64,000 bases of DNA from Flavobacteriales bacterium (GTDB lineage Bacteria; Bacteroidota; Bacteroidia; Flavobacteriales_F; PHOS-HE28). This document shows, in pieces, positions 22,290 through 45,891 of this stretch. The stretch lies in NCBI GenBank assembly GCA_016787995.1, contig JAEUTB010000111.1, positions 14,775 through 78,774 of the forward strand, written 5' to 3'. A model generated the notes under the pieces. That model was not told the origin of the DNA. It did not search any database and was given only the letters and a program-made list of their open reading frames with translations. A program made the translations under genes and the position numbers. The first letter of the stretch is position 1. Each line of letters starts with the position of its first letter.

Positions 22290-24248
22290 TCACCCGCCAT
22301 AGCCTCCGGCGACTGTTGGCATCCTTTCAACAAAATACATCTCCAGCTCGCCTTTCCCCTTCGCCTGCACCTTGCCGCGTGGGGTGAACGTGAACCCCGG
22401 CACGTCCTTCACCAGCGCGTAGGTGGCCTCGCTGATGTTCACCTGTCCCACTTCACCGCTGCTCTCCATGCGGCTCGCGGTGTTCACGGTGTCGCCCCAG
22501 ATGTCGTACTGGAACTTCTTCACGCCCACGATGCCGGCGACGACCGGACCGGTGTGGATGCCTACGCGCATCTCGAAGAACGGTAAACACTTGGCACTCC
22601 GCTCTGCTTTTCGGTGGGCGATGAAGGTTTGCATGTCCAAGGCAGCGAGCACCGTTTTCTGCGCGGAGTCTTCGCTGGGTACCGGCAGACCGCCCGCGGC
22701 CATGTAAGCATCACCGATCGTCTTGATCTTCTCGATGCCATACCTGGCCATAATGCCATCGAAGGCCTTGAAGCACGTATTCAGCTCCGCGACCAGGTCA
22801 GCAGGTGACACGTTCTCGCTCATCTGGGTGAAGCCCTTGAAGTCGGTGAAGAGGATCGTGGCGCTATCGAAATGCTTGGCTTCCGCGTATCCTTTCTCCT
22901 TCAGCTCCTCGGCCACTTCCGTAGGCAGGATGTTAAGCAGGAGCTCATCGCTGCGTTGGAGTGCCTTCATCGTGCGCTGGCGCTGCTTGAACACCACTAC
23001 CCCGAAGACGAGCAGACCCAGCCCAGCGAACAGGACGATATTGCGCCGGGTGCGCTCACGAGCCACACGCGCTTCACCGCGTTCGATCTCCTGCTTCATC
23101 CGCAGGGCGTTGGAGAGACTATCCGCCCTCATCTCCGCTTCGAATTCCAACTGGGCCGTCTCCTCCACCGCCTGCATGCCCGCCACACTATCCTTCAAGA
23201 CGACCCACCGTTCCGTCATCCGTAAGGCGTCTGCCAGTCGTCCTTGGCGACCATAAAGATCCTTCAGGGCCTTGGTCGCCGCCATCTCGAAGCGGACCTG
23301 TCCAGTGGTGCTCAGTTCACCGATGGCCTGCAACAAGGCCGACTCCGCCTCGCGCAGACGACCATCGCGAATGAGCAGCTCGCCCAACAAGGTGCGCTCG
23401 CGGCCCAACCAGTTATCCACCCCTGCGATCTTCGATGTTTCGATGGCCCGTTCGATGGTCGCGATACCCTCCCGCACGCTGTCAAGTCTGGCGTAGTGCT
23501 CTGCCAACGTCCAGTGCATCAGCGCGAAGGGCATGTCCACCGGATCGCCGACCTGTTCGGCGATGGATCTCTTCAACCAACGCATCGCCTCATCCTGTTC
23601 GCCACGTGCATTCAGCAGATACGCGATGTTCCATTTGAAGATCCCGCGATCGTAAGGGGTCTTGGAAAAGCGACCACCCAGCATGATCAAGCTGTCGACC
23701 GGCGCTTGGTCCGGTTCCTTGATGGCGATGGTCAACCGTGCAAGCAGCACGGATGCCGTGTCGTTAAGAGCAAGCGCGAACGGGAGCATCTCCCGCGCGA
23801 ATTGCACCATGCGGGCGGTGTCGCCCATCAGTTCGTAGAAACGCTGGAGGCGTGCGTAGTGGTGCAACGTTTCACGGGCCGTGGGATCTTCCGTGATCCG
23901 CCACGCTTCCATGTACGCCCTGAGCGCACCGCTGAAATCCGACGTGTAGGCCTCTTGAGAACCGAGTGCATACAAGTAGCGAGCGCGCAGGCGTGTGCCC
24001 TTGCGCAGCACTGCGGGTTCTGTGGACCGCTCGAGTTCTCCGAACACGCGGAAGAGACTGTCGCGGTAGCGATCGGCCATGGCGCCCTCGTGTGCCGTCC
24101 ATTCATACAGCGTCACGAGCAACTCCGCTCTAATGGTGTCGTGCGCGGCACGGTCGAGCTCCCGCTCCATGGAGTCCAGCATGGCCCGGCTCTGGGCGCT
24201 CGTTGATACGGTGGCCAGGCTGATCAGCCAGAACAGAAGTATCCTCAT
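22290..24248 (-). CDS. TPR-repeat / transmembrane / class III adenylate-guanylate cyclase (paralogue 3)
   Basis: Internal start MRILLFWLISLATVSTSAQ, with the same architecture and cyclase motifs. Confidence 0.85.
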   Translation of the reverse strand: MRILLFWLISLATVSTSAQSRAMLDSMERELDRAAHDTIRAELLVTLYEWTAHEGAMADRYRDSLFRVFGELERSTEPAVLRKGTRLRARYLYALGSQEAYTSDFSGALRAYMEAWRITEDPTARETLHHYARLQRFYELMGDTARMVQFAREMLPFALALNDTASVLLARLTIAIKEPDQAPVDSLIMLGGRFSKTPYDRGIFKWNIAYLLNARGEQDEAMRWLKRSIAEQVGDPVDMPFALMHWTLAEHYARLDSVREGIATIERAIETSKIAGVDNWLGRERTLLGELLIRDGRLREAESALLQAIGELSTTGQVRFEMAATKALKDLYGRQGRLADALRMTERWVVLKDSVAGMQAVEETAQLEFEAEMRADSLSNALRMKQEIERGEARVARERTRRNIVLFAGLGLLVFGVVVFKQRQRTMKALQRSDELLLNILPTEVAEELKEKGYAEAKHFDSATILFTDFKGFTQMSENVSPADLVAELNTCFKAFDGIMARYGIEKIKTIGDAYMAAGGLPVPSEDSAQKTVLAALDMQTFIAHRKAERSAKCLPFFEMRVGIHTGPVVAGIVGVKKFQYDIWGDTVNTASRMESSGEVGQVNISEATYALVKDVPGFTFTPRGKVQAKGKGELEMYFVERMPTVAGGYGG

Positions 24249-24438
24249 GTGGATGTGCTTGGCTCGCTCAGGCGTATCGAACCTAACGAAAACCCCGCTT
24301 TTGAGCTTGGAATAAGCCCAGAGACGTGATCGCTGCTCAGAGGTGTCCGAAAGGACCAGGACCCTCACCTGAGGGAACGAACGAATTCGTCAAACCGCAT
24401 CGCTACCGACAAGCCCCGTTCCACCCCACCTTTGCTAC

Positions 24439-27835: not shown

Positions 27836-29965
27836 TCATTTCAGACCAAGCTGCGCCTTGACTTCGGAAGCTTGGATACAAACTTCGTTATGGGATCGCA
27901 GTTCGAGGAACAGGCTACGCAGGTACTTGGACACCTCACCCAGTTCATCCGAAAAGGTGAACACTTTCGGATCGCCGATGATGATCAACTTCTGCCTGGC
28001 ACGACTGATGGCCACGTTCACCAAACGTTCACCGGTATCGCCTTTATAGAGTTGCCCGATCCGACGGTCCGTGCTGTCCACCACATCCCATAGGATGATG
28101 TCGTACTCAGAACCTTGAAAGGAATGAATGGTGCCCACCTTCACACGATCCATCTTTTCGGAAGTGAGCATGCTGCTTCGCAACAAGTGCTGGATGAGTT
28201 GCACCTGACCATTGTAAGGAGCTACAACACCGATCGTTACGCCTTGTACGTCACGGACAAGGGTCTGCACCAAAACCACCACTAACTCCGCCGATGTGTG
28301 GTTGCGCCGAGAACGCGTTTCAGTCATTGACACGCGTGAACCGTCCTGCAGACCAAGTTGAATGAAACTGACCGCCGCGCTGCCAAGGAATTCAAAGCCA
28401 TTGAGTGTAAGGGGTGCCCGGTCAACACGAGTGCGGAGCCGGCCATCGTAAAAGCGTTCGTTGATCAGGTCGCAGATCTCCGGATCCATACGATGCTGCT
28501 CGTTGAGCATCACCAAGCCTTGTTCTCGAAAAGCCGGCACCTTGCGCAAGTAGCTGAAGATGTCCGTAGCGAACCAATTCCGCGCCGCCTCGGTCGTGCT
28601 CACACAGATGGGTCCAAGTTGCTTGAAGTCGCCGGTGATCACCAGCTTATCACGAGTGAACAAGGCCATGGCCACGGTCTGCACCAAAGGCATCATGCTG
28701 ACCTCGTCAATGATGACCATATCGAACTGTTCCGGTTGGAAGGCATCGCTTAGAAAACACATGGCGGAGGTGGTGAGCGTGATGCTCGCCTCCCTCACCC
28801 GGGCCTCGTTCGCTTTCTTCAACTGCGCACGCAATACCACGAGCTGGTCCCTCAATTCAGCACGTCGTTCCGGCAAGTTCTCTGCCGTTCTTGCCAGCGC
28901 GGCTTGCAAGCGCCCCACTTCACGGCGTAGTGTGAGGATGTGGTCCTTATCTGGGAACAAACGGTCGTCCGCATTGATCTCCGGAAGAGCTGGGTACCCG
29001 AAACGAAGGACCTTGCGCGCTTCCAACAGCTCCCGTGTTTCACGCACCCGTTCCATTTCCTTCACCACTGCGCGTGTGAGATGGTCCACGGCGATGTTGG
29101 AGATGCCACTGGCCAGCACTTTGCGGCCTTGCGCAGCAGCCCGGGCGATGATCTTGGCCAAGGTGAAGGTCTTTCCTGTACCCGGCGGACCCCAAATGAA
29201 CGTGAGGTCCTGACCGAATACGCGCTCCATCACCAGACGCTGTGGTGTATTGACTTCGGGGTCGACGATGGTGACGGTGCCATTGCCGGTGCGAACGAGG
29301 TCGCGGCGCTCAAAGAGGCGTGCAGCTGCCGACTCCGGATGGTTCGGTATTTCCTCGAACTGCTTCTGTATCTTCTTCAGGAAATCGATGGGATGCGTAC
29401 GAAAGCGGAAACGACCGTTCATCTGCTCTGCGGAGAGCGCTTGGTTCGTGCGGAAGATGACGGTACTGGTGCGGTTGTAGTAGGCCAACAACACCCCGCG
29501 GGCCACACCACCATCCTGCAGTTCGGGCCACCACAGATCAATGGGCAAGCCGTCCTGACCTGGAGCGGCCAGGCCATCGGGCAGGCTTATCACCGCTTCG
29601 TACTGTTTCCCGTTCGCGGTTTCGCGCAGTAGCCGTAGCACCTTGGCCACCACCCAGTTCTTGCGCTGGTCCTGCTCCACAGCCGACTTCTCATCGTGGA
29701 AGGCCTTGCGCACCTCATCCTCTGGTGTGCTGCTCAGATCGAAACAACTGGGGAAATCACGTGTGAGCTTGCGCCAATCGGGGCGACGCAAATGCGTGCG
29801 CACCACCTCAAAATAGTCGGAGTAGTCGTCCAGGCATTGCACAATGACCTCTTCGTCCACATGATCACGGTGCAGCAGATTCTTCAACTGCAGGGTGTTG
29901 TAGTCCTTCTCGCGATGCGCGGGCTCGTACCACTTCTGGATGATCTTGAGGAAGAGGACCTGCAT
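27836..29965 (-). CDS. Upf1/DNA2-like superfamily 1B helicase (AAA_11/AAA_12-type)
   Basis: Walker A is WGPPGTGKTF and motif II is MVIIDEVSMM. Other helicase motifs are GDFKQLGPI, HSFQGSEYDIILWD and VAISRARQKLIIIGD. Confidence 0.85.
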   Translation of the reverse strand: MQVLFLKIIQKWYEPAHREKDYNTLQLKNLLHRDHVDEEVIVQCLDDYSDYFEVVRTHLRRPDWRKLTRDFPSCFDLSSTPEDEVRKAFHDEKSAVEQDQRKNWVVAKVLRLLRETANGKQYEAVISLPDGLAAPGQDGLPIDLWWPELQDGGVARGVLLAYYNRTSTVIFRTNQALSAEQMNGRFRFRTHPIDFLKKIQKQFEEIPNHPESAAARLFERRDLVRTGNGTVTIVDPEVNTPQRLVMERVFGQDLTFIWGPPGTGKTFTLAKIIARAAAQGRKVLASGISNIAVDHLTRAVVKEMERVRETRELLEARKVLRFGYPALPEINADDRLFPDKDHILTLRREVGRLQAALARTAENLPERRAELRDQLVVLRAQLKKANEARVREASITLTTSAMCFLSDAFQPEQFDMVIIDEVSMMPLVQTVAMALFTRDKLVITGDFKQLGPICVSTTEAARNWFATDIFSYLRKVPAFREQGLVMLNEQHRMDPEICDLINERFYDGRLRTRVDRAPLTLNGFEFLGSAAVSFIQLGLQDGSRVSMTETRSRRNHTSAELVVVLVQTLVRDVQGVTIGVVAPYNGQVQLIQHLLRSSMLTSEKMDRVKVGTIHSFQGSEYDIILWDVVDSTDRRIGQLYKGDTGERLVNVAISRARQKLIIIGDPKVFTFSDELGEVSKYLRSLFLELRSHNEVCIQASEVKAQLGLK

Positions 29966-30001
29966 GGAGTGTACTTAAGCGCTTGGCGCGTGGAATTTCG
30001 T

Positions 30002-30691
30002 TCACATCAGGTCCTCCAACTTCAAAGGACTCTCCTTCACTAGCCGGATATAGGCCTTCATACCCACGAAGTAATTAAATGGAGGATGATGCCCAAGATG
30101 ATCAAGTGAGAAGCACGCCTCGATACGTCGAAATGAATGTTCGACCTGGTCCATCGCACGGGTCACCTGGTCGCGATGCACTCCAATCGAAACCTGGACC
30201 TTCGAATCCCAGTGAGCGAGCCGTGTATTTCTCAACTTCTTGATCGGGCGGAGCGCCTTGACCAAGTCCTTTTCCATTTGAAGTCGCACCGGCTCAGTGT
30301 CTCTGGGGAAAATCGAAGCATGCCTATCCAACCACGCAGGAATGCCTATTGGCTCAGCCCCTGGCCTTCTTCTTCGATCACCAAAAGCTGCAAGACCTAA
30401 GAGCAAAGTGGTCCACAAGGCATCCAGTATGACACCATTGAACGCGCCAAGTTTCTGCACCACTTGGTACCGGTCTTCCGGCGCGGCATCCAGCCAATCC
30501 TGCAACGCTGCCCAGATGTTCTCCAACCTACCGTACTGGTGCCAGAGGTAGTTGAACTCGCGTGCGGCCTCTTCGCCCATGGCCACACGCCAGAATGCGG
30601 CTTGGCCGGCGTTGCCGACCTCGAATGATCGGAAAGTGTTGGCGCTCATGACAGGTGAATTCGAGCGGGCGTTTGATGGACGTGGGCGCAT
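30002..30691 (-). CDS. HEPN-domain protein, AbiU2-like (putative RNase effector)
   Basis: All-helical 229-aa protein carrying LRNTRLAHWD, an R-N-x3-A-H (Rx5H) HEPN-type motif, at 30212-30232. It sits 36 nt upstream of the helicase and 4 nt after the previous gene. Confidence 0.5.
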   Translation of the reverse strand: MRPRPSNARSNSPVMSANTFRSFEVGNAGQAAFWRVAMGEEAAREFNYLWHQYGRLENIWAALQDWLDAAPEDRYQVVQKLGAFNGVILDALWTTLLLGLAAFGDRRRRPGAEPIGIPAWLDRHASIFPRDTEPVRLQMEKDLVKALRPIKKLRNTRLAHWDSKVQVSIGVHRDQVTRAMDQVEHSFRRIEACFSLDHLGHHPPFNYFVGMKAYIRLVKESPLKLEDLM

Positions 30692-30695
30692 CGGA

Positions 30696-32072
30696 TCAGG
30701 CTACCTCCTCCTTCCGCTTCCTGGAGTTGTTGCAATACCGGTGCGTTAACCGCCCATTGTCCTCAGTCGTTGTGCCTCCCTGCCAAAACTGCTCGATGTG
30801 GTCCACCGCCGCATCATCCATCGTCGTGATCTTGTTGCCGCAGAGCTCGCACTTGTTGTTCTGGTCAAATAGCTGCTGCTTGAACTCATAGGTGAACAAG
30901 CGATCCTGTGGCACATCATTCTTCAGAATGGCATCCATGCGTCCACGCCATTTATCGAATCGTTTCTGGATGGCCTGCTTGCTGCTGGTACTGCGTTCAA
31001 TGGAGGTGATGAACTCATCATCGCTGGTCATCAGGTCGATGAAGCCGTCATGGAGCAGGTCACGGTTCCTGGTCACCTGGTTCTTGTCGGCATCGGCGAA
31101 GACCACCATGCACACATCATACAGTGACACGTTGAATTTCTTGGGCTCCCACTTGCCGTTCTTGGCACCGGCAGTCCCCGCATAGAAACGCCTGAAGGCA
31201 CGCTCACCGAAGATCGTGTTCGTGATTTGGACCGCGTTGCGAAAAGCCTTGCGAAGGGCCTCAGCATTCAAGGACTTCATTTCGCGCTCTGCCTCCATGA
31301 AGTCCGTCATGAAGCGTTTCATGGGCGACGTATACTTCAAGTAGGTCTTGTGGTGGAGGGCGGCGAAGCGAAGTACCAGCTCGGTGTTCCACATGCGCCA
31401 ATCCGGCTCCTGTACGCGGAGCAGTTTGTTGAAGGCGGCGTCTTCGGCGAGTTCCTTCAGCAGTTCATTGAATGGCCCGCGCAGAGTACAGTTCCGAAGC
31501 TCTTGATCACTCAAGGGCATTGAACCGGAGTTCAAGCGCTCGAAGATCTCGTACTGCAAGCCCTTGTCGCTTTCCTTCTTGAACAGAATGGTGCGTAACG
31601 GGCAGTCGTTGAACTTCTCTTGTAGTTCATCAGAAAGGTCCTTGTAACCAAGGCCATTCAGGTCCGTGAGCGCCTGAAGGCTTTTCAATTGGAAGGGTGA
31701 GCCGTCCGGGAAGCTCCCGCGCTTGAAACTGAACAGCGAGGTAAGCCGCTGTTGCCCATCAATGACGTTCTGCACCCCATTCACCTCTTCGTTAAGATAA
31801 ATGATCGGGAGCGGGATGTCCAGCAAGACCGATTCCACCAGTCGGCTGGCACGCTTCGCATCCCAGACGTATTTGCGCTGGAACTCAGGTTGCAGAATGA
31901 GCCGACCACGTTCATACTTCTCCGCCAGCACAGCGACAGTAGGGTCCGTGGATTGCGTAAAGATCTTACGGCCCTTGCCATCAAGTGAATCCTCTTCGAC
32001 TTCCTTGTCAAGGTCTTGTTCCAGATCATCCTCTATCTCGTACTTGGCCATGTGCTGCGTGTTAGTGATCAC
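30696..32072 (-). CDS. DUF262 (ParB/GmrSD N-terminal-like) protein with C-terminal HNH endonuclease
   Basis: DUF262 motifs are LQPEFQRKYVW and VIDGQQRLTSLF. The C-terminal HNH reads CELCGNKI...DHIEQFWQGG...N...HRYCNN. The start is either GTG at 32072 (GTGA overlap with the upstream stop) or ATG at 32051. Confidence 0.85.
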   Translation of the reverse strand: MITNTQHMAKYEIEDDLEQDLDKEVEEDSLDGKGRKIFTQSTDPTVAVLAEKYERGRLILQPEFQRKYVWDAKRASRLVESVLLDIPLPIIYLNEEVNGVQNVIDGQQRLTSLFSFKRGSFPDGSPFQLKSLQALTDLNGLGYKDLSDELQEKFNDCPLRTILFKKESDKGLQYEIFERLNSGSMPLSDQELRNCTLRGPFNELLKELAEDAAFNKLLRVQEPDWRMWNTELVLRFAALHHKTYLKYTSPMKRFMTDFMEAEREMKSLNAEALRKAFRNAVQITNTIFGERAFRRFYAGTAGAKNGKWEPKKFNVSLYDVCMVVFADADKNQVTRNRDLLHDGFIDLMTSDDEFITSIERSTSSKQAIQKRFDKWRGRMDAILKNDVPQDRLFTYEFKQQLFDQNNKCELCGNKITTMDDAAVDHIEQFWQGGTTTEDNGRLTHRYCNNSRKRKEEVA

Positions 32073-33355
32073 TTCTTCCTCTTCCGTTTCTCCACCTCCT
32101 TCTTCTTCGCCCGCTTCAGGTACTCTCCATCCTTGGTCAGCTTCTCCATGATCAGGTCGATGCAGGCGTCGGAATAGGTGTGCTGAACGATGGTGCCGTC
32201 GTCGAAATGGAACTTGTTCGAGTTGTCCTTCCAGCCCTCCATGGAGCTGATGCTGCTGAAGTCGTGTATGTTGAACTCCGGCTTGGTTCGGCCGAACAAT
32301 TTCCGGAGTCCATCTTCGCTGAACCGGCCTTTGAGGCGCTTGTTCACCTCGGCCACGATCTGCTTGGCTTCCAGCGGATGCGACTTCTTCTGGTCCAACG
32401 TCTTGTTCACCACAATGGGCATTACGCCCGCGATGCCTGCAATGGTCTGCTCCGGTTGCGAATTCTTGTCCACAAAGCCGATGCTCAGGTGCAGAGGTAT
32501 CGCGAAGCGGTTGTCGTTCGCCTGCTCTGCGTCGCGTTCCAGGCGCTCAATGCGGGAAAGGATGTTGGCAGCATGCTCATGGCCGTAGCGTTGCACCAGC
32601 ATGGCTTGGTAAGGCTCGGTGCCATCGAACACTAAGGACAACAGCCCTACGCCGCTCACCTGCATCGGTGGGTATCCGGCAAGGGTCAGGTACTCCCGGA
32701 AGAAGTTCATCACCCCACTCTGGAAGTAGCGACTGGCAATTGGCCCCAGTTCAGGCAGGACGTAGTGCATGGATTCATCGCGCAGGTCGTGGACGTACTC
32801 CACGTTGCGGCGTACCGGGTCCTGCGCAGGGTACAATTCGGCCAGGACCTTTCGCAGCGACTTGCTCTTGCGCTCCTTGCCACTCTCCCAAATGCTATCG
32901 GCCCCCTGCTCCTTCACAAGCCGTGCTTTCAGGAACTTCTCGAACGCGGCGCAGAAGTGCACCACGAAGGCATCCACGCGGTTGGGAGTGGTGGGGCGGT
33001 TGAACAGTTCGATGGCCAGTTGGAACTCCTGTGCAGCGGCCTCCAATAGATCCCCGAAAAGGCCAGTGTGCTTCGTGGCCGGGCGCGGCGGCCCCGCCTT
33101 GCGCTGGCTCAAGGCATCCTGGAAGCGCTCCAGCGTGATGCCAGCAAAGCCTTGCACCATATAGGTGTCCTTATTCGCTTTATGCAGCCACGGCACAAGG
33201 CCCTTACTTATCATGGGCTTGATAGCTGTGTCCTTATAGCCCGTGGCCGATAGGACTTTGGCCAAGGTCAGTGTGCGACCGTTGGATGCATACTCCCGGA
33301 GCAGGGCAAATAGCTTTTGCTGTTTGTCGGACGCGTTACGCATGGTTTTGGTCAT
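32069..33355 (-). CDS. hypothetical protein with HEPN-like Rx4H motif (DUF3644-like)
   Basis: 428 aa. The central helical region is FQLAIELFNRP...FVVHFCAAFEKFLKA...VHDLRDESMHY, with the RDESMH motif at 32765-32782. Family assignment is from memory only. Confidence 0.5.
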   Translation of the reverse strand: MTKTMRNASDKQQKLFALLREYASNGRTLTLAKVLSATGYKDTAIKPMISKGLVPWLHKANKDTYMVQGFAGITLERFQDALSQRKAGPPRPATKHTGLFGDLLEAAAQEFQLAIELFNRPTTPNRVDAFVVHFCAAFEKFLKARLVKEQGADSIWESGKERKSKSLRKVLAELYPAQDPVRRNVEYVHDLRDESMHYVLPELGPIASRYFQSGVMNFFREYLTLAGYPPMQVSGVGLLSLVFDGTEPYQAMLVQRYGHEHAANILSRIERLERDAEQANDNRFAIPLHLSIGFVDKNSQPEQTIAGIAGVMPIVVNKTLDQKKSHPLEAKQIVAEVNKRLKGRFSEDGLRKLFGRTKPEFNIHDFSSISSMEGWKDNSNKFHFDDGTIVQHTYSDACIDLIMEKLTKDGEYLKRAKKKEVEKRKRKK

Positions 33356-33434: not shown

Positions 33435-34652
33435 TCAAGTAGTTGGAAGTTTCTTGATCAGCGGAATCATCACATCAACCACCTTGCGATACATGGCGCT
33501 CTTCCGCTCTTCTTGGAATTTCTTCCAAATGCGATCAGCTACCTCTGTGGCACTCAGCTCTTGCTTCAGCGACTTGTCAAGCGATTGGCGATAGAACGTG
33601 AACCACTGTTCAGGCGCGCTTGTCTTGTTATCTGAAGGGAACTTCTCCTGCTTCATCAAGCTCAATACTTCCTTTCGCCATTCCTGATCCTTTGCAGATG
33701 GACGAAGTTGTGCGGCGAGCACGGCGTTAGTCTCCTGGACACGCACTTCAAAAGCTGCCGAGTACCATCGGCCCGCCTCTTTGTTCTGGGCTAGATCCCA
33801 AGCCTTGGGCACATAGGTCAACAGGCCCTTGGTGGCATGCACGAAAACCAGTTCCCCTTTCTTATCTTCCTCAATAAGGCGGTGCTTCAGAAGGTCGGTT
33901 ACCTCCTTCGTCCTGTCGGGGCGTTGGGAGAACAAGTAGTCCAACGCGGTACCATGCGCCTTGTAGATCTCCTTAGCCAGCGTGATGGCCTCGTCGTTGT
34001 CGATGAACCGTTCTTTCAAAAGCGTGTTGTATTGATGAATGAGATAGCCCGGCCCCTCTTGTAGTTCTCCGCTCGCATGGCCTAGGCAGGTCTCCAATGC
34101 TTGTTGAACGGTCTGGTAGGTTGTCGGTATGTACTCCTTGTCGTTGGGTTGTTCTGCGTGTCTCGTCAGAAAGAGCAGCACCCTCTTCGCATCCGGGTAT
34201 TCCCTCTCCACTTCTGCCCTGTACTTCAGCAATTGGTCGTTCCCTTGCCGGGAGTTCACTTTGTTCTCGATACCAATGACCCATTGCAGGTCGTTCGCCA
34301 AAGTGATCTCCACCAATACATCCAAACGGCTCCATTCTCGTACAACTCGCACCTGTTTGAACGGCTTAGTATCAACCATGACCGGGTCGATGACCTCAGG
34401 TCGGTCAGCATCGTGCAGCACAAGCATCATCCATCGGCGCAGGAACAATTCACCGAAGCCATGATTCTCTGTTGGATCGAGTAGCCAAGCCAACATGTTT
34501 GAATGCCTGAGCTCATGGTCACTACTGCGCAGGACATCGAACACGTTGAATCGCCCGATGGTGCGTTCGAGCTTCATGAAAGCATCTGGCGCGACCACAA
34601 GCTTGCGCATTGAGGCTATGATCTCAACCGCTTGGACTTCACGCTCTGCCAT
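33435..34652 (-). CDS. PD-(D/E)XK nuclease family protein
   Basis: The N-terminal part reads HELRHSNMLAWLLDP...HGFG..FL. It is followed by RLDVLVEI...VIGIENKV, which fits D-x17-E-x-K. Confidence 0.65.
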   Translation of the reverse strand: MAEREVQAVEIIASMRKLVVAPDAFMKLERTIGRFNVFDVLRSSDHELRHSNMLAWLLDPTENHGFGELFLRRWMMLVLHDADRPEVIDPVMVDTKPFKQVRVVREWSRLDVLVEITLANDLQWVIGIENKVNSRQGNDQLLKYRAEVEREYPDAKRVLLFLTRHAEQPNDKEYIPTTYQTVQQALETCLGHASGELQEGPGYLIHQYNTLLKERFIDNDEAITLAKEIYKAHGTALDYLFSQRPDRTKEVTDLLKHRLIEEDKKGELVFVHATKGLLTYVPKAWDLAQNKEAGRWYSAAFEVRVQETNAVLAAQLRPSAKDQEWRKEVLSLMKQEKFPSDNKTSAPEQWFTFYRQSLDKSLKQELSATEVADRIWKKFQEERKSAMYRKVVDVMIPLIKKLPTT

Positions 34653-34872: not shown

Positions 34873-35009
34873 CGCTACCTGTTTGTGCTCGTTCAATTCC
34901 CTTCCTCTTCCCACTCCCCTCCACGATCTTGATCTCCTCCTCCGTCAACCCATCGCGCACACACCTTGCGCTCCTCCCGCACAGGCCGCCCTCGAAGATG
35001 CGCGCCACG
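34859..35009 (-). pseudogene. relic of a second methyltransferase 3' end
   Basis: The minus-strand frame reads ...CVRDGLTEEEIKIVEGSGKRKG.... This parallels the intact MTase tail VYGLYGLTPEEIEIVERSGKRKP. The nucleotide block ctccacgatct is shared at 34919-34929 and 35059-35069. Confidence 0.4.
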
Positions 35010-38000
35010 CTACTCATCGCCCGTCGCGCCATCGTTAGTTGGCTTTCGCTTGCCGCTCCTCTCCACGATCTCTATCTCTTCAGGTGTAAGCCCATACAGA
35101 CCATACACCACCTGGTCGATCTCCCGCTCCACCGCCTCCGCCTTTGGCCCAGCCACCATCCCCAGCCGCTTCTCCACCAGCTTCTCCAGTTGTGTGTCAA
35201 GACTGCGGTTGGCCATTGGCAGAGGCAACTGAGCAATGGACCGTGCCTGTATTTCACTGAAGACCTTCTTCGTGGACTTCAGAAATGTTGTGTAGTAGTA
35301 GTTCCAAAGCTTCGAATTGAACAAGGCCAAAAGCCACTCAGGTGTCCGGTTAGTATCTTGGTTCAGATTAATGACCACAAGCGTATTAAGCGCATAGAAC
35401 TGCTCTTCGTCGAGAGCTGCAATCAAGCTCGATGAAACACGTCGGAAGAAGATCTTCTTCTTGGAGAGAAAGATGTCCTCTCGCTTACAACTATGAATGG
35501 AATCAACATCGTACCGCAAGTAATTTCCAGACCATGCGATGCCATAGCGATGAATCTCTCTACCGTCAATTACCGGCTTGTAGTTCTTGCCCTTGGCCTT
35601 GTTGAACAGATGTGCAGCTCGGTCACCTTTGAGCGCGATTGCCTGGTTTATTGACGATATCTGTCCAAGCTTGATAGAAGAACGGTCGTCGATGTTCTTC
35701 TTTAGGACACGACCAGCATCGTCATGAGCCACCGAGAATCGCAACAAATCATCGCTTGCGAATTCACCTGCCGGTATTGTAGTACTGCTCCATTGGTAGT
35801 CGCTCGTAAACGACGTGACCTTGATAGCGTTTGACGAAGGTCGCGTCCTCTGAAGAAAGAGCGTCACGGCTTCGACCACGGCATCATCGAACGGCAGCTT
35901 TTCGTAGGTCACTATCTCCGCAACCTGTGTCTGCTCCAAAATGAACTTGCGCAATCCATGGTAGTAGTCCTGAGTAAGTATCGTATTCGGTACAATGAAT
36001 GTCAGTACGCCATTTTTCGCAAGCGAGAGTGCGCCGCTTTCAATGAAGAACCCGAATGTGTTCATTCGGCCCATAGATGAAGAGTAGTTGGCGAGCAGAT
36101 ACTTCCGCTGCACGTCGTCGAACCATTCATACATCGCAAGCTGCACGTATGGAGGATTCCCAATCACAATGTCGAAACCCTTGTTCAACCCATACATCCA
36201 CTCGGGGTCGAAGAAGGGCGCGCTGGCGTTCTGGTCGTAGGGGTCCCAAGCGGCGAGCATCTTGGCGGTCTTGGGCTGGAACTCGTGTTCCTGCACCAAT
36301 AGCTCCGCCAGCTCCTCGCGCAATTGCTTGTCCTGCTCGCGGCACCGGGCCTTGCGCTGGGGGGTGCGCGCCTCGAAGTAGTCGTGCCGCACGCGCTTCA
36401 GTTGGGCCTTTTTCCTGTCGATGGCCGGGTTGGTGAAGAGGTTGTCCTGCTCCTTCTCCAACTTCATCAGCGTATTGGCCGCCACGAACTTGGTCTCCAA
36501 ATTGGGTAGGGGGCGCACGCCCAGGTTGGGGCGCTTGGCATCCACGCGCTGGTCCACCACCAAGCTGATGAAGAAGCGCAGCTTGGCGATCTGCATGGCG
36601 ATGGGCTGGATGTCCACGCCATAGATGCCGTTCTCGATCAGGTAGAGCTTGCGGCCGTAGTCCAACGCGTTGTGCTCGAAGGCATCCTCGATGTCCCGGA
36701 TAGTGTTCTCCTTGATCTCCGCATCGTCAAGCTGCTTTGCCTTCTCGATCTGCCGCTCCTTCCATTGGGTGTTCTTGGGATCGAGCTTGTGCAGCACGTG
36801 CACCAGCTTGTGCAGCACGCCCATGGGGAAGGCGCCGCTGCCACAGGCGGGGTCCAGGATCTTGCAACTGTCGATGGCCGCGATGAGCTTCTCGGCCTCT
36901 GCCTTGGAGAATTGGTGGGGCTCTTCAGTGTAGGAAAGCACGTGGCGGAGCTTCGCTTCGATATCGTTTCGTGTGTCGACCCTGTGGGTCGACGGTACGG
37001 GAGCTTCGAGGGATGTTTTGAGGTAGGCGATGAGTGATTCATCCACCATGTAGTTCACGATCTCCCGCGGCGTGTAGAAGCTGCCGGTCTGCTTGCGGGC
37101 GGTGGTCTTGGTCTCCGGGTTGTAGTTGGCCAGCAGGTTCTCGAACACCTTGCCCAACAGCTCGGGGTCCAGCGCCACTTCCTCCTCGATGGGCGTGTTC
37201 TCCGTGATGGTGAACTTGTAGCTACCCAGGATGTCGATGAGGCCGCGCACCTTCTCCTTGCGGGCCTTCTTACTGCCATACACCTCACTGAAGTCCCATT
37301 CCTCGCCCTCGGGGTCGAAGAAGAGCTTGTCCGGCACGTGCAGCGGATTATCCTCCCGGTCGCTGAAGCCATCAATGCGAACGGGAACAAGCTTGCCCTT
37401 CTGCTCCACCTGCTTGTCCAGGCACTCGAAGAGGCCACCGTTCAGGAAGGGGATGGGGTCGAACAGCTCCTTAAGGGTTCCCTTGGGGTCCACGAAGCAG
37501 CGTTCGTAGCGGAACACGTTGTGGATGAAGTAGTGCTTGCTCTGGCTGCGGTCCGCCTCGATGCGGAAGCGGCGCTTGCCCATCTCCGTGTTCAGCGTGG
37601 CGAAAAAGAGGTTCTGCAAGATGGCCTTGTAGTAGAGGCTCTTCTCCTTCGCATCGCTGCGCAGGATCTTCTTCAGCGCCTTGGGATCGAAGAGGGCATC
37701 AGGCACCAGGTCCTTCTCGCGCAGGAACCACACGAACATGAGGCGTGTGATCAGCCGGATGGTGTTGATGGCGTTGCGCTTCTCCTTGTCGCCTTCGGCA
37801 TCCGCGGGCCACTTGGTCACCTCCACGGCATGGAAGTACCAGTTGCTCAGTTCGCGGAAGAAGCGCTTGTTGAGTTCCTTGGTGTCGAGGGTCTTGCGCC
37901 AGGCCTCGTGCAGCTTGGGGAAGTTGGGCACCTCATGCTTCTTGCGCAGTTGCTCTAGGCTCAGATCAAAGAGGATCTCCACATGTGCCCGGTGCGGCGC

Positions 38001-38549
38001 TGTGGTGCGGATATCCTTGATCAGGGTCACCTTCTCCAGCACGTCCTTGCTGCTTTCACGCTTGTGCAGGCGGCGATCGATGACCGCGAAGGACAACGTA
38101 TCGCCATGTTTGAACAGGATCATCGCCGGCATGGCGAAGCACTTGTTCAACTCGCGCGTGATATGACTAAGCTCGGTGCGCGTATAGGCGCCTTCCTTCT
38201 TCGGCTTCAGCTCCAGCACGAAGAAGAGGTAGCTCTCGATGATGGTGTTGTCCACCTGCTCGTTCCTGAACAAACCGTGTTGGGCGCCCAGGTTGTCCCC
38301 AGTGAGCTGGAAGAGCAGGTCGATCTTTTTCCACTGCTCGTGCAGCGCGGTCTTCTTGTTGAAGCGTGGATCGTTCTTCCCGAAATACTCCTCGAATTCA
38401 GCGAAGGTGCCCTTAGTGAAGTAGTTCAAGCGAGGCGCGCTGTAGCCAAGGTTCTTGAGCAGGTACAGGGCGCATTCGGACAGGTCGCCGGTGCCTAGGG
38501 CCTCGATGGCTTCCTTGATGCGCAGTTTCAGGTCTTTCTTCTCGCTCAT
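35010..38549 (-). CDS. large gamma-class N6-adenine DNA methyltransferase with C-terminal target-recognition region (Eco57I/type IIG/PglX/DrmMI-like)
   Basis: Motif I is ILDPACGSGAFP, upstream of motif IV DIVIGNPPYV. The protein is 1179 aa. Its tail, LYGLTPEEIEIVE, is typical of this family. Confidence 0.9.
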   Translation of the reverse strand: MSEKKDLKLRIKEAIEALGTGDLSECALYLLKNLGYSAPRLNYFTKGTFAEFEEYFGKNDPRFNKKTALHEQWKKIDLLFQLTGDNLGAQHGLFRNEQVDNTIIESYLFFVLELKPKKEGAYTRTELSHITRELNKCFAMPAMILFKHGDTLSFAVIDRRLHKRESSKDVLEKVTLIKDIRTTAPHRAHVEILFDLSLEQLRKKHEVPNFPKLHEAWRKTLDTKELNKRFFRELSNWYFHAVEVTKWPADAEGDKEKRNAINTIRLITRLMFVWFLREKDLVPDALFDPKALKKILRSDAKEKSLYYKAILQNLFFATLNTEMGKRRFRIEADRSQSKHYFIHNVFRYERCFVDPKGTLKELFDPIPFLNGGLFECLDKQVEQKGKLVPVRIDGFSDREDNPLHVPDKLFFDPEGEEWDFSEVYGSKKARKEKVRGLIDILGSYKFTITENTPIEEEVALDPELLGKVFENLLANYNPETKTTARKQTGSFYTPREIVNYMVDESLIAYLKTSLEAPVPSTHRVDTRNDIEAKLRHVLSYTEEPHQFSKAEAEKLIAAIDSCKILDPACGSGAFPMGVLHKLVHVLHKLDPKNTQWKERQIEKAKQLDDAEIKENTIRDIEDAFEHNALDYGRKLYLIENGIYGVDIQPIAMQIAKLRFFISLVVDQRVDAKRPNLGVRPLPNLETKFVAANTLMKLEKEQDNLFTNPAIDRKKAQLKRVRHDYFEARTPQRKARCREQDKQLREELAELLVQEHEFQPKTAKMLAAWDPYDQNASAPFFDPEWMYGLNKGFDIVIGNPPYVQLAMYEWFDDVQRKYLLANYSSSMGRMNTFGFFIESGALSLAKNGVLTFIVPNTILTQDYYHGLRKFILEQTQVAEIVTYEKLPFDDAVVEAVTLFLQRTRPSSNAIKVTSFTSDYQWSSTTIPAGEFASDDLLRFSVAHDDAGRVLKKNIDDRSSIKLGQISSINQAIALKGDRAAHLFNKAKGKNYKPVIDGREIHRYGIAWSGNYLRYDVDSIHSCKREDIFLSKKKIFFRRVSSSLIAALDEEQFYALNTLVVINLNQDTNRTPEWLLALFNSKLWNYYYTTFLKSTKKVFSEIQARSIAQLPLPMANRSLDTQLEKLVEKRLGMVAGPKAEAVEREIDQVVYGLYGLTPEEIEIVERSGKRKPTNDGATGDE

Positions 38550-38559: not shown

Positions 38560-41500
38560 TCACTTGATCACCAGCCAGGTCACCAGATCGAAGTCATCCG
38601 GTGTGCTGGCCTGCTGTGCGTCGGGGATCAGCAGGGCTTGCCGGTCGTTGCTCAGTTTGGCACCGCTGCGCTTACGGAACAAGCTGGCGATGTCGGCGGT
38701 GGCGCGCTCGATGAGCGCATCGTACTTACCCATGCCATTTTCCGTTTCGCGATTGAAGAGCTCGCACAGTTCCTGGTAGGCTTCCTGCTTGCCTTGGCAC
38801 AGCGAGCGGAAGACTTCCAAGGTCTGCTTCGGCTGGGTAAACCTGAAACGCACGGTGCCATCCTCCCGCACGTACACCAAGAAGTAGGGTGCCGTTACGT
38901 TGATCGCTTCCTTGGCCTTCTGCTGCTCGTCATCGCCACGTTTCCGTTCACGCAGGCAGAGCAGCACACCGGGCTTGATCACGTCCTTGACGCCGGGACT
39001 GAGCAGGTCGTACTGCTTGGCACCCATGGCGTGGCCAGGGGAGGGCACCACGGCATAGAGGCCTTCGGGCGCTTCACGCAGGCGGTCCTCGTTGCCCTTC
39101 AGGAAGTTCAGTAGCTCGGTGCGGAAGTCGTCCAGTGTAAGGTCGGTGAGCGAAAGAGTATCGCCGCTGTCCTCGATGTCCAGCACCTCCTCCTTCAGCT
39201 TCTTCAACTGACGGTTGCGGTACTTCAGATCCTCGCTGATCAGTTCCTCCACCTGTTCGTTGGTGAGCAGGTTGTCATCGGCGGTAGCGGCCAGGTCCAC
39301 CAGCGCCATGCGGGTCTCCACGCGGATCTTCAACTCAATGTACTTGTCCAGGTCCTCGGTGGGCCAGAAGTTCACCAAATGCACGGTGGCGTTGGTGCTG
39401 CCCAGGCGGTCGATGCGGCCGAACCGCTGGATCACGCGAACCGGGTTCCAGTGGATGTCGTAGTTGATCAGGTAGTCGCAGTCCTGCAGGTTCTGGCCTT
39501 CGCTGATGCAATCGCTGGCGATGAGCACATCGATGCAACCTTCCTGCGGCATGTCCTTCTTCAATGCCCGCTGCTTGCTGATGGGGCTGAAGTTGGTGAG
39601 GATGTGGTTGAAGTCGTTACGGCCGAAGGTGGTCTTGTTGTTGGTGCCGGTTACCAGGGCGATGTGGCTTTTCAGCTCATGGGCCACGAACTCCTGCAGG
39701 TTGTCGTAGAGGTACTCCGCCGTATCGGCGAAAGCCGTAAAGACGATGACTTTCTTATTGCCCGGATTGTATTGCTTGATGGCTTTGGCCGCGAGCAGGT
39801 TCTTCAGTTCCTGCAGCTTGGCATCTCGCTTGGCGTCGATGGCCTTGGCTGTGTTGTACAAGCGCACCATGGTCCGTTTGTCGCTAGCCAGCACCTTCAG
39901 CCACTCGTCCAACTTACTTTCCATGTGGGCCAACTTGAACTTCATGCGCTTGCCCACCTCCCATTGCGCATCGTCCTCATCGAAGTCGGTCGTCTCCTCG
40001 CTGTCCGGCTCGGAGGCTTCCAGCTCATCGGCTTCGGCTCGCTTGGCCTGGTACTCCTTGATGCGCTTCTCCAGGTTCTCAATGCGCTGGATGGTGCGGT
40101 CCATGCTCACGGCGAAACTGTGGATGGAGCTTTCCAGTCGTTTGAGGAAGCCCTTCTTCATCATGTGGATGAGCAGGCGTTCGCGCTTTCCCTGGCTGAA
40201 GGGCAGTCCTTCCAAGGCGGCTTGAGTCTCGTAGTGGCTCACCCACTTGTCGTCGATGAAGCGCGAGGGGTTGTAAACCGCCAGCTCGTACTTCAGGATC
40301 TCGTCGTTGATGGCATCGTAGCCCTCGATCCGGTTCTCCAGATCGAGCGCCGGGTAAATGGAGATGGGCTTCGCCCGTTCGGGGAAGTGACCGATGACCT
40401 CCTCCGAGTAGAAGGTCTTGATGTGGTTGCGGCTGCGTGCGATGGTTAGCTCGTCCAGCAGCTTGAAGAAGGCGCTGTCCAATTGCTCCATCAACTGCTT
40501 CACGTTGCGGTCTCGATTGACCGGGTCGGCCCACTTGGTGAACTGGGACTGGGCACGTTTTAGCAATTGTGCGGTCGTATCATCCACGCCTTGGATCAGC
40601 TGGATCTGGTTGCGCAGGTCGCGGAGATTGGTGTTCACGGGCGTGGCCGTGAGCAGGAGCACCTTGCTCTTCACCCCTTCGCTGATGAGCTTCTTCAGTA
40701 GCCAGGCCGTGCGATTGAACTTGTCGTTGCCTTCTTCATCCGTGCGGATCTCCGGATTGCCTCGGAAGTTGTGGCTCTCATCAATAACGATGAGGTCCCA
40801 TGCGCCCCATGGGAAATTGGCCATGTCGAAGCCGTCCACCTCGCTGGTGCCGCGTGTGCGACCCATGTCGGTATGGTACAGAAGCCGGTAGTTGAACTTG
40901 TCCTTCTTGAACGGCGAGAGCGGACTGAGGCGGCGGCTTTGATAGATGGTCCAGTTCTGCGCGAGTTTCTTTGGGCAAAGCACTAGTACGTTCTGTCCGA
41001 GCCCCTCGAAATACTTGATCACGGCCAGCGCCTCGAAAGTTTTCCCGAGACCAACACTATCGGCGATGATGCAGCCGCCGTGCGTCTTGATCTTGTTGAT
41101 GGCGCCTTTCACACCGTCCTTCTGGAAGGCGAAGAGCATGTTCCAGATCTCGCTCTCCAGGAAGCCGGTGCGGTCATCCAGCAGACCGCCTGCTGCCTCG
41201 TCCTTCAAGAATTTCTCGAAGACGTGGTAGAGTGTCTTGAAGTACACGAACTCCGGCGGCGTTTCCGCGAACAGGAGCTTCATATCGTCCAGCACCTTCT
41301 GCTTCACATCTTCCACCAGTCCGGTGTTGTCGTTCCACAACTCTTCGAACCACTGCTTCAACTCCTCTCGGTCCCGGCGATCGTTGATCACCATGTTCAA
41401 CTCCATGTTCGGCGTGCTGCCGCATCCCAAACCTTGTGCGGTGAAGTTGCTGCTCCCGGTGATCGCTTCCTCGGTCTTGTTCGGATTAGCGATGTGGTAG

Positions 41501-41934
41501 AGCTTGCCGTGCAGGAAGTTCGGCCGCACCAAAGATCGTATCTCCACTTTGCGCTGGATCCAATCCGCACAAGCTTTCGCCATGGCCCGCTGCTGTACCT
41601 GTGCGGCCATCTTCAAGCCCTCATCAGTCATTCTGAAATTGCGCCGCGGCTTGTTCTCGTCCTTTACCTTGATGAAAGCTGGATCACCGAAAAGGAAGCG
41701 GAGGTGATCGACGCCCTCGAGTTCTTCCCGCAATTGGGCGTACGCGTTCACCGTGAAGTAGGCACTGACGATACTGAGCGCACTGCCGTCCAGGATCTTC
41801 TCCCTAAGCCAATCGCCAACCTTGCCGTGGTCTCGATTGTCTTTGATGGAAGATAGATGTGTCGTAGTCCTAGGGATCGAAGGGAACAATTGTTCGGGGG
41901 TATTTACTCCGGGTGCAAAGTACCTCAAATGCAC
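38560..41934 (-). CDS. PLD-nuclease domain fused to SNF2/SF2 helicase
   Basis: The N-terminal HKD motif is HGKLYHI...ITGSSNFT. Helicase motifs are ADSVGLGKTF (I), VIDESHNFRG (II), LLTATPVNT (III) and QRFGRIDRLGS (VI). Confidence 0.9.
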   Translation of the reverse strand: MHLRYFAPGVNTPEQLFPSIPRTTTHLSSIKDNRDHGKVGDWLREKILDGSALSIVSAYFTVNAYAQLREELEGVDHLRFLFGDPAFIKVKDENKPRRNFRMTDEGLKMAAQVQQRAMAKACADWIQRKVEIRSLVRPNFLHGKLYHIANPNKTEEAITGSSNFTAQGLGCGSTPNMELNMVINDRRDREELKQWFEELWNDNTGLVEDVKQKVLDDMKLLFAETPPEFVYFKTLYHVFEKFLKDEAAGGLLDDRTGFLESEIWNMLFAFQKDGVKGAINKIKTHGGCIIADSVGLGKTFEALAVIKYFEGLGQNVLVLCPKKLAQNWTIYQSRRLSPLSPFKKDKFNYRLLYHTDMGRTRGTSEVDGFDMANFPWGAWDLIVIDESHNFRGNPEIRTDEEGNDKFNRTAWLLKKLISEGVKSKVLLLTATPVNTNLRDLRNQIQLIQGVDDTTAQLLKRAQSQFTKWADPVNRDRNVKQLMEQLDSAFFKLLDELTIARSRNHIKTFYSEEVIGHFPERAKPISIYPALDLENRIEGYDAINDEILKYELAVYNPSRFIDDKWVSHYETQAALEGLPFSQGKRERLLIHMMKKGFLKRLESSIHSFAVSMDRTIQRIENLEKRIKEYQAKRAEADELEASEPDSEETTDFDEDDAQWEVGKRMKFKLAHMESKLDEWLKVLASDKRTMVRLYNTAKAIDAKRDAKLQELKNLLAAKAIKQYNPGNKKVIVFTAFADTAEYLYDNLQEFVAHELKSHIALVTGTNNKTTFGRNDFNHILTNFSPISKQRALKKDMPQEGCIDVLIASDCISEGQNLQDCDYLINYDIHWNPVRVIQRFGRIDRLGSTNATVHLVNFWPTEDLDKYIELKIRVETRMALVDLAATADDNLLTNEQVEELISEDLKYRNRQLKKLKEEVLDIEDSGDTLSLTDLTLDDFRTELLNFLKGNEDRLREAPEGLYAVVPSPGHAMGAKQYDLLSPGVKDVIKPGVLLCLRERKRGDDEQQKAKEAINVTAPYFLVYVREDGTVRFRFTQPKQTLEVFRSLCQGKQEAYQELCELFNRETENGMGKYDALIERATADIASLFRKRSGAKLSNDRQALLIPDAQQASTPDDFDLVTWLVIK

Positions 41935-45117: not shown

Positions 45118-45181
45118 CGGGGTGTCGAGTATGTTGAATGCATGTTCTGTCGTCAAAGGCCAGGTGGGTAAGTCCTTTCCC

Positions 45182-45862
45182 TCACGGGACCTGCACACCG
45201 GCGGGCACTGCCATGCGCGCCGAGTCGGCCTTCAGCGGTTCAAGTTGCTGTGCGCAGCATTTCACTGGCATTGGCCTGCAAGTGGTCATGGCCGCGTGGC
45301 AGGTGCAGGCGTTGGGTGGCACCATGTGCTTATCGTGTACACCAGAGCCGATGCAGCCATTACTGGAATACGGCGAACGCTTCTTTCTGGGCTTGTGGCT
45401 GGGTGGTGCATCATTCCTATCACATCCGCAGCAGGGGTTCACCAAGTAGATCTCGGGCGCTTGGCAGGGTTCTGCCTTGCATCGGTCGTTGCTCTCGGCT
45501 GCAGTGAATAGTTGATCGATCTTCACGGTAATGGTCTCTAAACGATCGCTCATCCAGCAGAACTGAGCGAAGCCGAACAGCATGGCGACTAGTACCAGGA
45601 AAAAGGTGGCCCAGACCCCACGACGCACTCGGTTGGTGAGGGACCTGAGTTTCTTCTCCCGCTCAGGCGTGGCCTTCGTCTTCTCGACGGCCTCTTCCAG
45701 CGATCTGACCTTCTCACTGAAGTCTTTAAGCTGTCCGGCAAGTGTCTCTTCGGCACTATCGAAGACTTTGTTCCGCTGTCGTATGATCTTGTCAAGGTCC
45801 TCCAGGCGGCTGCGCTGGTCAGAGAGTTCGTTCAAAATATCTTGGAGAGTGGGCGTAGCCAT
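45182..45862 (-). CDS. coiled-coil / TM / Cys-rich extracytoplasmic-tail protein
   Basis: 226 aa. The N-terminal part is helical, followed by the TM helix VWATFFLVLVAMLFGFAQF after RVRRG. The C-terminal ~110 aa hold about 11 Cys (PCCGC, ACTC, KCC). Confidence 0.5.
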   Translation of the reverse strand: MATPTLQDILNELSDQRSRLEDLDKIIRQRNKVFDSAEETLAGQLKDFSEKVRSLEEAVEKTKATPEREKKLRSLTNRVRRGVWATFFLVLVAMLFGFAQFCWMSDRLETITVKIDQLFTAAESNDRCKAEPCQAPEIYLVNPCCGCDRNDAPPSHKPRKKRSPYSSNGCIGSGVHDKHMVPPNACTCHAAMTTCRPMPVKCCAQQLEPLKADSARMAVPAGVQVP

Positions 45863-45891
45863 GTGAATACTGTATTTGTTTTTGGTCGGTC

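Follow-up and report, generated by a model that had tools for sequence, protein, structure and literature searches.

We describe here a two-gene element on the minus strand of a 64,000-nucleotide (nt) stretch of contig JAEUTB010000111.1 from a Flavobacteriales bacterium (the window; coordinates without a locus name refer to it). The element comprises a gene for a 215-residue protein of the AbiU2 family of HEPN proteins (the HEPN gene) and, behind it, a gene for a 709-residue Upf1-like helicase of superfamily 1 (SF1), and it lies at the 3′ end of an operon resembling a restriction-modification (R-M) system. We propose, with a probability of roughly 0.45, that the HEPN protein and the helicase form a small anti-phage cassette, a helicase-gated RNase. 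Specifically, the HEPN protein would be the effector, a predicted metal-independent RNase acting through the Arg/His dyad of the motif LRNTRLAH, while the helicase, which has no nuclease domain, would be an ATP-driven sensor or switch. The helicase would be triggered by loading on phage-derived nucleic acid (RNA, single-stranded DNA or a replication intermediate); the loaded helicase would contact and release or activate the HEPN RNase; and RNA cleavage would stop translation and abort the infection.

An SF1 helicase gene follows the HEPN gene in seven of eight loci

The principal evidence is the conservation of gene order as seen from the HEPN gene (Table 1). An SF1 helicase gene lies downstream of the HEPN gene in seven of eight distinct loci, and the upstream genes vary (DUF262-HNH, HEC-07 or McrC). 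The helicase is Upf1-like (SF1B) in the window and L002 and UvrD-like (SF1A) in the other five, where it scores about 200 bits on GajB profiles. That the adjacency persists with upstream contexts of three kinds and with helicases of two families argues that the two genes form a unit.

Two comparisons between loci point in the same direction. A blastn comparison of the window with L002 gives one uninterrupted match of 2.7 kb (74%), which comprises exactly the HEPN and helicase genes, with unrelated flanks and with the same spacing between the genes (~35 nt in L002); that this pair is the sole block common to both loci argues for a cassette. Likewise, the only locus without a downstream SF1 helicase gene carries a frameshifted HEPN gene, as seen in each of two independent samples (L003 8001-8578 and L004 2724-3331), which also favours a cassette. 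In addition, the last 18 residues of the HEPN protein sort by the type of helicase encoded downstream, reading ESPLxLxDLx beside Upf1-like helicases and WxGNPFE beside UvrD-like helicases, whereas no such sorting is seen in the remainder of the protein; this, too, is consistent with a helicase-gated RNase.

Table 1. Genes upstream and downstream of the HEPN gene in the loci compared
Locus	Upstream	Downstream
Window	DUF262-HNH	Upf1-like helicase
L002	ABC ATPase, DUF262-HNH, HEC-07	Upf1-like helicase, 83% identical to that of the window
L001/L006	SNF2-HKD, methylase, ATPase, GmrSD, HEC-07	UvrD/GajB-like helicase
L014, L018, L015/16	HEC-07	UvrD-like helicase
L005	McrB, McrC	DarT-DarG insertion, then UvrD-like helicase
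L003/L004	HEC-07 (HEPN gene frameshifted)	Exonuclease-RecQ-like gene

The sorting of the tail invites a more general proposal, which we consider unlikely. AbiU2-type HEPN proteins of this clade would be "plug-in" effectors with a short, exchangeable tail at the C-terminus, by which they dock onto SF1 helicases that are themselves interchangeable, Upf1-like (SF1B) or UvrD-like (SF1A). The result would be a helicase-agnostic sensor-effector cassette that is absent from current catalogues and is possibly wired to an upstream DUF262/ParB-like sensor.

The arrangement of the two genes in the window also supports a cassette: they lie on the same strand with a gap of 36 nt, and a terminator scan finds no minus-strand terminator-like site between them. 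An earlier note, made from the letters of the window, had described two open reading frames (ORFs) in this arrangement, a 709-residue helicase and upstream of it a 229-residue protein, and had quoted the motifs GPPGTGKT, DEVSMM, GDFKQLGPI, FQGSEYD, VAISRAR and LRNTRLAH. The arrangement is borne out by sequence and translations, with the helicase ORF at 27836-29965 and the smaller ORF at 30002-30691, both on the minus strand, and every one of the motifs is present in the translations. The length of the smaller protein is to be revised: all of its homologues begin at the second Met (MSxxxF...), indicating that the start in the window is probably at 30649 and the protein 215 residues long, so that R154 and H160 of the 229-residue count become R140 and H146. 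A sigma-70 promoter scan gives no match, the sigma-70 model being unsuited to Bacteroidota.

Two of the loci show further features between or beyond the genes of interest. At L003/L004, a gene for a fusion of DnaQ-like exonuclease and RecQ-like helicase is located ~200 nt past the HEPN pseudogene. At L005, which is led by McrBC and has no methylase, a DarT/macrodomain (DarG-like) toxin-antitoxin pair and a 173-residue ORF (10653-12527) are inserted between the HEPN gene and the UvrD-type helicase gene, with a second copy of the first 48 helicase codons flanking the insertion.

The two proteins have complementary domain compositions

Sequence profiles and the predicted structure identify the 709-residue protein as a full Upf1-like SF1B core to which no effector domain is attached, in agreement with the assignment made in the earlier note. 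Specifically, it matches the Pfam families AAA_11 (90.7 bits, 1.7e-25) and AAA_12 (120.9 bits, 6.5e-35; cut-off 27 for each); its motifs I, II, III, V and VI are intact and are invariant across 32 homologues; and a profile of these homologues, searched against PDB sequences, retrieves IGHMBP2 (8.8e-51, in an alignment that begins at helicase residue 152) and UPF1 (3e-46). An AlphaFold2 model (mean predicted local distance difference, pLDDT, 86.5) gives Foldseek matches to IGHMBP2 (4b3g; E 1.7e-34; template-modelling scores of 0.65 for the query and 0.74 for the target; 669 columns) and to UPF1 (2gjk; E 3.7e-33). The model contains two RecA domains, a 1B beta-barrel and a helical stalk, together with an N-terminal helix/hairpin extension of ~100 residues. 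No nuclease domain is detected by Pfam, and the predicted structure is fully accounted for by the core and the N-terminal extension. Searches of IMG/VR and of plasmids with the helicase return only distant cores (22-32% identity).

The smaller protein is assigned to the AbiU2 family of HEPN proteins on the basis of sequence profiles and its motif. It passes the gathering cut-off of Pfam HEPN_AbiU2 (PF18734; 31.3-31.5 bits against 26.8, E ~1.5e-7 to 1.8e-7), in an alignment that pairs residues 26-169 with positions 2-161 of the 193 in the profile, and 27 of 29 relatives match the same family (best E 1.5e-26). In an alignment of 29 sequences with a mean identity of 26%, the only invariant columns are R140 and H146, the Rx5H dyad of LRNTRLAH, a putative catalytic motif that predicts RNase activity. 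The Pfam match and the conserved dyad support what the earlier note had read from the letters, an AbiU2-like HEPN protein with an Rx4-6H motif. The AlphaFold2 model is a confident all-alpha bundle (pLDDT 88, predicted template-modelling score 0.85) for which the best Foldseek matches (E 0.9 in the PDB, 0.3 in BFVD) are generic helical bundles, with no solved HEPN structure matched significantly. A profile search against PDB sequences gives no match, nor do the PADLOC (v2), NCBIfam or PHROG models.

The HEPN subfamily is rare. An exhaustive hidden Markov model search of 1.84 billion representatives yields only 23 relatives, and only 11 clusters are found among 5.8 billion proteins; the matches in both sets are all 89-259 residues long. 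Searches for the HEPN protein return no locus in plasmids, phages or IMG/VR, one in GTDB genomes and one in JGI metagenomes. The protein is a single domain without a sensor domain, and no antitoxin gene accompanies it. A single-domain HEPN protein with an invariant Arg/His pair and an intact helicase without an effector are complementary parts, which further argues for the proposed cassette.

The helicase gene also occurs without the HEPN gene

A number of findings weigh against a cassette. Foremost, seen from the helicase gene, the association with the HEPN gene is not maintained. The full-length helicase family is much larger than the HEPN subfamily, with many members in Flavobacteriaceae (44-48% identity), and four helicase loci have no HEPN gene. 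In L013, a Flavobacteriales metagenome-assembled genome syntenic with the window (74% nt identity in a gene of BNR/type IX secretion system (T9SS) type), the helicase gene directly follows a methylase gene and precedes a DUF429 gene. In L007/L008, the order is an 81%-identical methylase, PDC-M63, UzuA, a 150-residue protein, the helicase and DUF429/PDC-S44. In L009 (Mariniflexile), the end of hsdR in a type I R-M operon and the start of the helicase gene overlap. In L019 (Algibacter sp. L3A6, CP047030), the helicase gene stands alone, preceded at ~9910-10000 by ~90 nt of a decayed hsdR 3′ end strongly similar to the intact hsdR-helicase junction of L009, indicating that the helicase gene outlasted an R-M operon that has otherwise been lost. 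The helicases of L010-L012 (36% identity) have yet another gene context. Moreover, it is exactly at the helicase ATG that L007 and L013 start to match the window. Together, the HEPN-free loci and this boundary suggest that the helicase gene recurs at the end of R-M-type operons as a fixed piece, behind cargo genes that can be exchanged.

Co-conservation of the two genes, on which the earlier note had made its proposal depend, therefore holds in one direction only, as judged by gene order: it is seen from the HEPN side (7/8) and fails from the helicase side (L007, L013, L009 and L019). In the survey of helicase-HEPN adjacency that the note had suggested, the HEPN gene adjoins an SF1 helicase gene, but in most homologues one of UvrD type and not one of Upf1-like type.

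The remaining findings on this side of the balance concern the HEPN protein and the breadth of the comparison. A partner drawn from more than one helicase family (SF1B and SF1A) is unusual for an obligate complex. The covariation of the tail involves six loci, with a chance expectation of ~1 in 15, and it could mark a recombination breakpoint, not a contact. The eight HEPN contexts all come from related Flavobacteriales-type islands and so are not independent. No HEPN-helicase fusion is present among the 23 relatives from the 1.84 billion representatives or in the 5.8-billion index, and the gene of a distant AbiU2 relative, on a Xanthomonas plasmid, is not accompanied by a helicase gene.

The main rival explanation, in which the two genes are independent, adjacent merely as cargo or end pieces of a defence-collecting R-M-like operon, accommodates many of these findings; we regard it as less likely than the cassette. 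The HEPN protein would then be a stand-alone abortive-infection (Abi) type RNase or a PrrC/RloC-like "guard" RNase of the R-M system, and the helicase an R-M-associated protein that works with the restriction machinery or with nucleases such as DUF429/PDC-S44. Such an explanation is consistent with helicases that follow a methylase (L013), hsdR (L009), a decayed hsdR (L019) or other cargo (L007) without a HEPN gene, with the boundary of homology at the ATG, and with scars of exchange, both at 34901-34953 in the window and in the duplicated UvrD 5′ end around the DarTG insertion of L005. There is precedent for it as well: unrelated defence genes embedded in modification-based systems are documented (10.1101/2024.01.29.577857), and AbiU2 genes have been noted in R-M operons (PMC3710099). 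However, it leaves three features unexplained: the SF1 helicase downstream in seven of eight loci with varying upstream genes, the HEPN and helicase genes as the single block shared by the window and L002, and the harmlessness of a dyad-intact, 215-residue HEPN protein with neither antitoxin nor sensor.

Two genes beside the HEPN-free helicase genes are of interest in their own right. The DUF429 protein (PADLOC PDC-S44) is encoded directly downstream of the helicase in L007 (7312-7974) and L013 (3431-4081); it is present in two HEPN-less helicase loci and absent in two HEPN loci (2 vs 2), and it could be an alternative nuclease partner of the helicase. No DUF429 remnant was found downstream of the helicase gene in the window. 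The 150-residue protein of L007 (4595-5047) is encoded 36 nt upstream of the helicase gene, in the position of the HEPN gene. It has no Pfam, PADLOC or PHROG match, and it contains a pattern, FDIIL...MQLK, that by eye is reminiscent of PD-(D/E)xK nucleases. Its identification as a diverged HEPN protein was rejected (hhalign probability 0.1%), as was a C-terminal tail shared with the HEPN protein of the window (DNA similarity not above shuffles, z = 0.5).

The pair is embedded behind a helicase-methylase frame

The HEPN and helicase genes are the last two genes of a same-strand operon led by a gene for an HKD-SNF2 protein (Table 2), in a part of the window (~27-53 kb) with lowered GC content; the gene downstream of the helicase gene encodes a PNPOx-like protein. 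The HKD-SNF2 protein is 67% identical to its homologue in L006 and matches the PADLOC profiles HmaA and DrmD, and the methylase matches DrmMI and PglX. In the window, L002, L006, L003 and L007, the cargo of homologous methylase frames differs from locus to locus, and in L013 there is none. The 53-nt relic is 74% identical to positions 35043-35095 of the resident methylase gene and 87% identical to the end of the L007 methylase gene, and in its sequence it looks like a cassette-exchange scar at the junction of methylase and cargo. Variable cargo between homologous frames, together with exchange scars, indicates that these genes are embedded.

Table 2. Coordinates of the gene pair and of the other operon features in the window
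Feature	Position	Strand	Description
HKD-SNF2, first operon gene	38560..41934	-	1124 aa; Pfam PLDc_2, SNF2-rel_dom, Helicase_C; PADLOC C3a139 "HKD+Snf2" 406 bits
Eco57I/TaqI_C-type N6-adenine methyltransferase	35010..38549	-	1179 aa; operon frame gene (Pfam/PADLOC)
Methylase 3′-end relic	34901..34953	.	53 nt; just past methylase stop codon
PDC-S26	33435..34652	-	PDDEXK_4 nuclease; embedded defence candidate (Pfam/PADLOC)
PDC-S19	32069..33355	-	DUF3644 HEPN + EC042_2821 restriction endonuclease-like domain; embedded defence candidate (Pfam/PADLOC)
DUF262 (GmrSD_N) + HNH protein	30696..32072	-	NsnA-like; Pfam GmrSD_N 4.7e-31, HNH 9e-9; PADLOC NsnA 302 bits
HEPN gene	30002..30649	-	215 aa, AbiU2 family; longest ORF, to ATG 30691, 229 aa
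Spacer	29966..30001	-	36 nt, HEPN stop codon to helicase start codon
Helicase gene	27836..29965	-	709 aa; Upf1/IGHMBP2-like SF1B

The immediate upstream neighbour of the HEPN gene, the DUF262-HNH gene, ends 4-46 nt before the HEPN start, and its product may be a third component of the cassette or an independent embedded protein. One explanation enlarges the unit accordingly: the HEPN protein and the helicase would act together with a DUF262/ParB-like protein and, perhaps, the RelE-type HEC-07. The logic would be that of Menshen, which combines a ParB-like sensor with an NTPase and a nuclease effector; here, the SF1 helicase would stand in for the ABC ATPase, and the HEPN protein would take the place of the BECR nuclease or act alongside it. 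A DUF262 gene is indeed located one or two genes upstream of the HEPN gene in the window, L001/L006, L002, L003/L004, L014 and L015/16; the one in the window scores 302 bits on the NsnA profile at this short distance; HEC-07 proteins carry an NsnC-like C-terminus; and the linkage of HEC-07, HEPN and UvrD genes persists across ~55-80% protein identity. Nonetheless, L005 has McrBC in place of the DUF262 protein, and the DUF262 proteins are of different types that can barely be aligned (27% over 170 residues between the window and L002). Neither the window nor L005 has HEC-07, which protects by itself in E. coli; GmrSD-like genes are very common embedded cargo in any case (both 10.1101/2024.01.29.577857); and the Menshen survey (PMC12065111) makes no mention of HEPN proteins or helicases. 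On this balance, we consider the larger unit distinctly improbable. Separately, the ABC ATPase, DUF262 and HEC-07 genes directly upstream of the HEPN gene in L001 (3009-7926) and L002 (3517-7996), HEC-07 having an NsnC-like RelE-type C-terminus, resemble a Menshen-type trio in B-A-C order.

It is very improbable, in our judgement, that the helicase is instead a third part of the frame, acting with the HKD-SNF2 nuclease/translocase and the N6-adenine methylase in a "helicase, methylase, ATPase" layout analogous to Hma or to a reduced DISARM, with the HEPN gene as embedded cargo. The profile matches of the two frame proteins to HmaA, DrmD, DrmMI and PglX agree with such a layout, as does the presence of a methylase or R-M operon before the helicase, with 0 to 4 variable genes between, in the window, L002, L007, L013 and L009. 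Against it, the frame of L006, with 65-67% identical SNF2 and methylase proteins, ends in a UvrD-type helicase; the methylase systems of L013 and L009 are unrelated; and L005 has McrBC and no methylase. Further, Hma uses a 5-methylcytosine methylase and a different ATPase (PMC8565338), and PADLOC finds no HmaC match; membership of the frame in Hma was accordingly rejected.

Several side observations concern the frame and its surroundings. With DrmA/B absent, the SNF2-HKD and methylase frame is reminiscent of DrmMI combined with a DrmC-DrmD fusion; the frame is found again, with other cargo, in L002, L003, L006 and L007. Further upstream on the same strand (43369-50178) are additional defence-like genes, for a 609-residue patatin-like phospholipase, a 226-residue protein of unknown type and a 1428-residue AAA_16/KAP-type (STAND-like) NTPase. 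Just outside the island, tandem paralogues at 20139-22136 and 22290-24368 encode tetratricopeptide repeats with an adenylate/guanylate cyclase domain. Proteins with T9SS tails are also encoded in the window and, together with the synteny to the Flavobacteriales genome of L013, assign it to Bacteroidota.

Comparison with known defence systems

The cassette that we propose probably adds a rare, two-gene example to a kind of phage defence that is known in outline, helicase-nuclease cassettes embedded in R-M-like operons, and introduces no new principle. The earlier note had suggested a Mokosh-like module with a different effector. Mokosh comprises a COG1112 helicase and a phospholipase D (PLD) nuclease, both required for defence, and type I adds a kinase (Millman et al. 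2022, 10.1101/2022.05.11.491447). The pair in the window shares with it a COG1112/Upf1-like helicase core and the logic of helicase plus nuclease. Specifically, the PADLOC MkoA model PDLC03920 matches the helicase with 202 bits, aligning residues 242-684 to profile positions 620-1099 of 1112, so that only the C-terminal 40% of the profile is covered, and the helicase has 709 residues against more than 1100 in MkoA. Unlike Mokosh type I, the helicase has no Ser/Thr kinase match (Pfam) and the genes flanking it encode no PLD domain (Pfam, PADLOC); unlike type II, the helicase itself has no PLDc match; and the candidate effector is a HEPN RNase. In the whole operon, a PLD domain occurs only in the SNF2 fusion protein encoded five genes upstream, whose profile matches are to C3a139 and DrmD and not to MkoB. 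Because there is neither a PLD partner nor a kinase and only the helicase core is in common, the pair is not a member of Mokosh, though the comparison remains a fair analogy.

The same note named no described system with this pairing, and here the literature differs. In CoCoNuT types II and III-A, described computationally, a Upf1-like CnuH helicase is combined with a HEPN effector, CnuE (Bell et al. 2024, PMC11090510), and HEPN-SF1 helicase fusions were catalogued, along with AbiU2 genes in R-M operons, by Anantharaman et al. in 2013 (PMC3710099). CnuH-CnuE is the closer parallel, a Upf1-like SF1 helicase beside a predicted HEPN effector in super-operons with restriction systems, and together with Mokosh it provides precedent for a helicase-gated RNase. 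The pair in the window differs from it in four respects: there are no McrB/McrC (CnuB/CnuC) domains among the eight proteins of the operon; the HEPN gene is upstream of the helicase gene and not downstream, where the PNPOx-like gene lies; the HEPN protein is a bare 215-residue AbiU2-type domain without the elongated winged helix-turn-helix and coiled coil of CnuE; and the helicase is without the SmpB-like and RelE-like N-terminal domains. With the AbiU2 survey, the pair has in common PF18734, the Rx4-6H motif and location in an R-M operon, but the partners listed in the survey are Sel1-repeat proteins and R-M operons, with no SF1 helicase among them (PMC3710099). We found no paper describing an AbiU2-type HEPN protein paired with an SF1 helicase and no PADLOC or NCBIfam model for such a pair. 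In L. lactis, AbiUii lowers the activity of AbiUi and gives no protection by itself (PMC13064643).

Other systems share single aspects of the design. Hhe combines HEPN and SF1 helicase in defence but is a single protein of ~1800 residues with DUF4011, transglutaminase and Vsr domains; the helicase scores 31.9 bits on NCBIfam Hhe_antiphage (cut-off 2000) and 16.5 bits on PADLOC Hhe, in the Walker A region only. Gabija (GajA-GajB) and Hachiman (HamA-HamB) have a two-gene helicase-plus-nuclease design, whereas the effector here would be a HEPN RNase and not an OLD/Toprim or PD-(D/E)xK DNase, and no GajA or HamA homologue is present. Of Menshen (NsnA-NsnB-NsnC), the window operon contains the NsnA-like protein and no NsnB or NsnC match. 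Finally, Payne et al. (2024) catalogued defence genes embedded in modification-based systems, including Hma, HEC and PDC (10.1101/2024.01.29.577857). The operon resembles these in having same-strand defence genes nested within or behind a helicase-methylase system, and the neighbours PDC-S19, PDC-S26, HEC-07, PDC-M63 and PDC-S44 all come from that catalogue; it differs in its frame, which is HKD-SNF2 plus an N6-adenine methylase and not Hma, BREX, DISARM or type I R-M.

Implications

Should the two genes prove independent, the locus would be a further case of defence genes gathering in R-M-like operons, as already documented. If instead the HEPN protein and the helicase form the cassette that we propose, a compact, rare helicase-gated RNase would be added to the anti-phage repertoire. 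Upf1-like helicases act in RNA surveillance in eukaryotes, and the pair would offer a tractable two-protein model for the control of bacterial HEPN nucleases by a Upf1-like helicase, a question that CoCoNuT and Mokosh also pose. Moreover, if the pair is functional, the association of one HEPN clade with two SF1 helicase families would inform the swapping of sensor and effector modules in defence islands.

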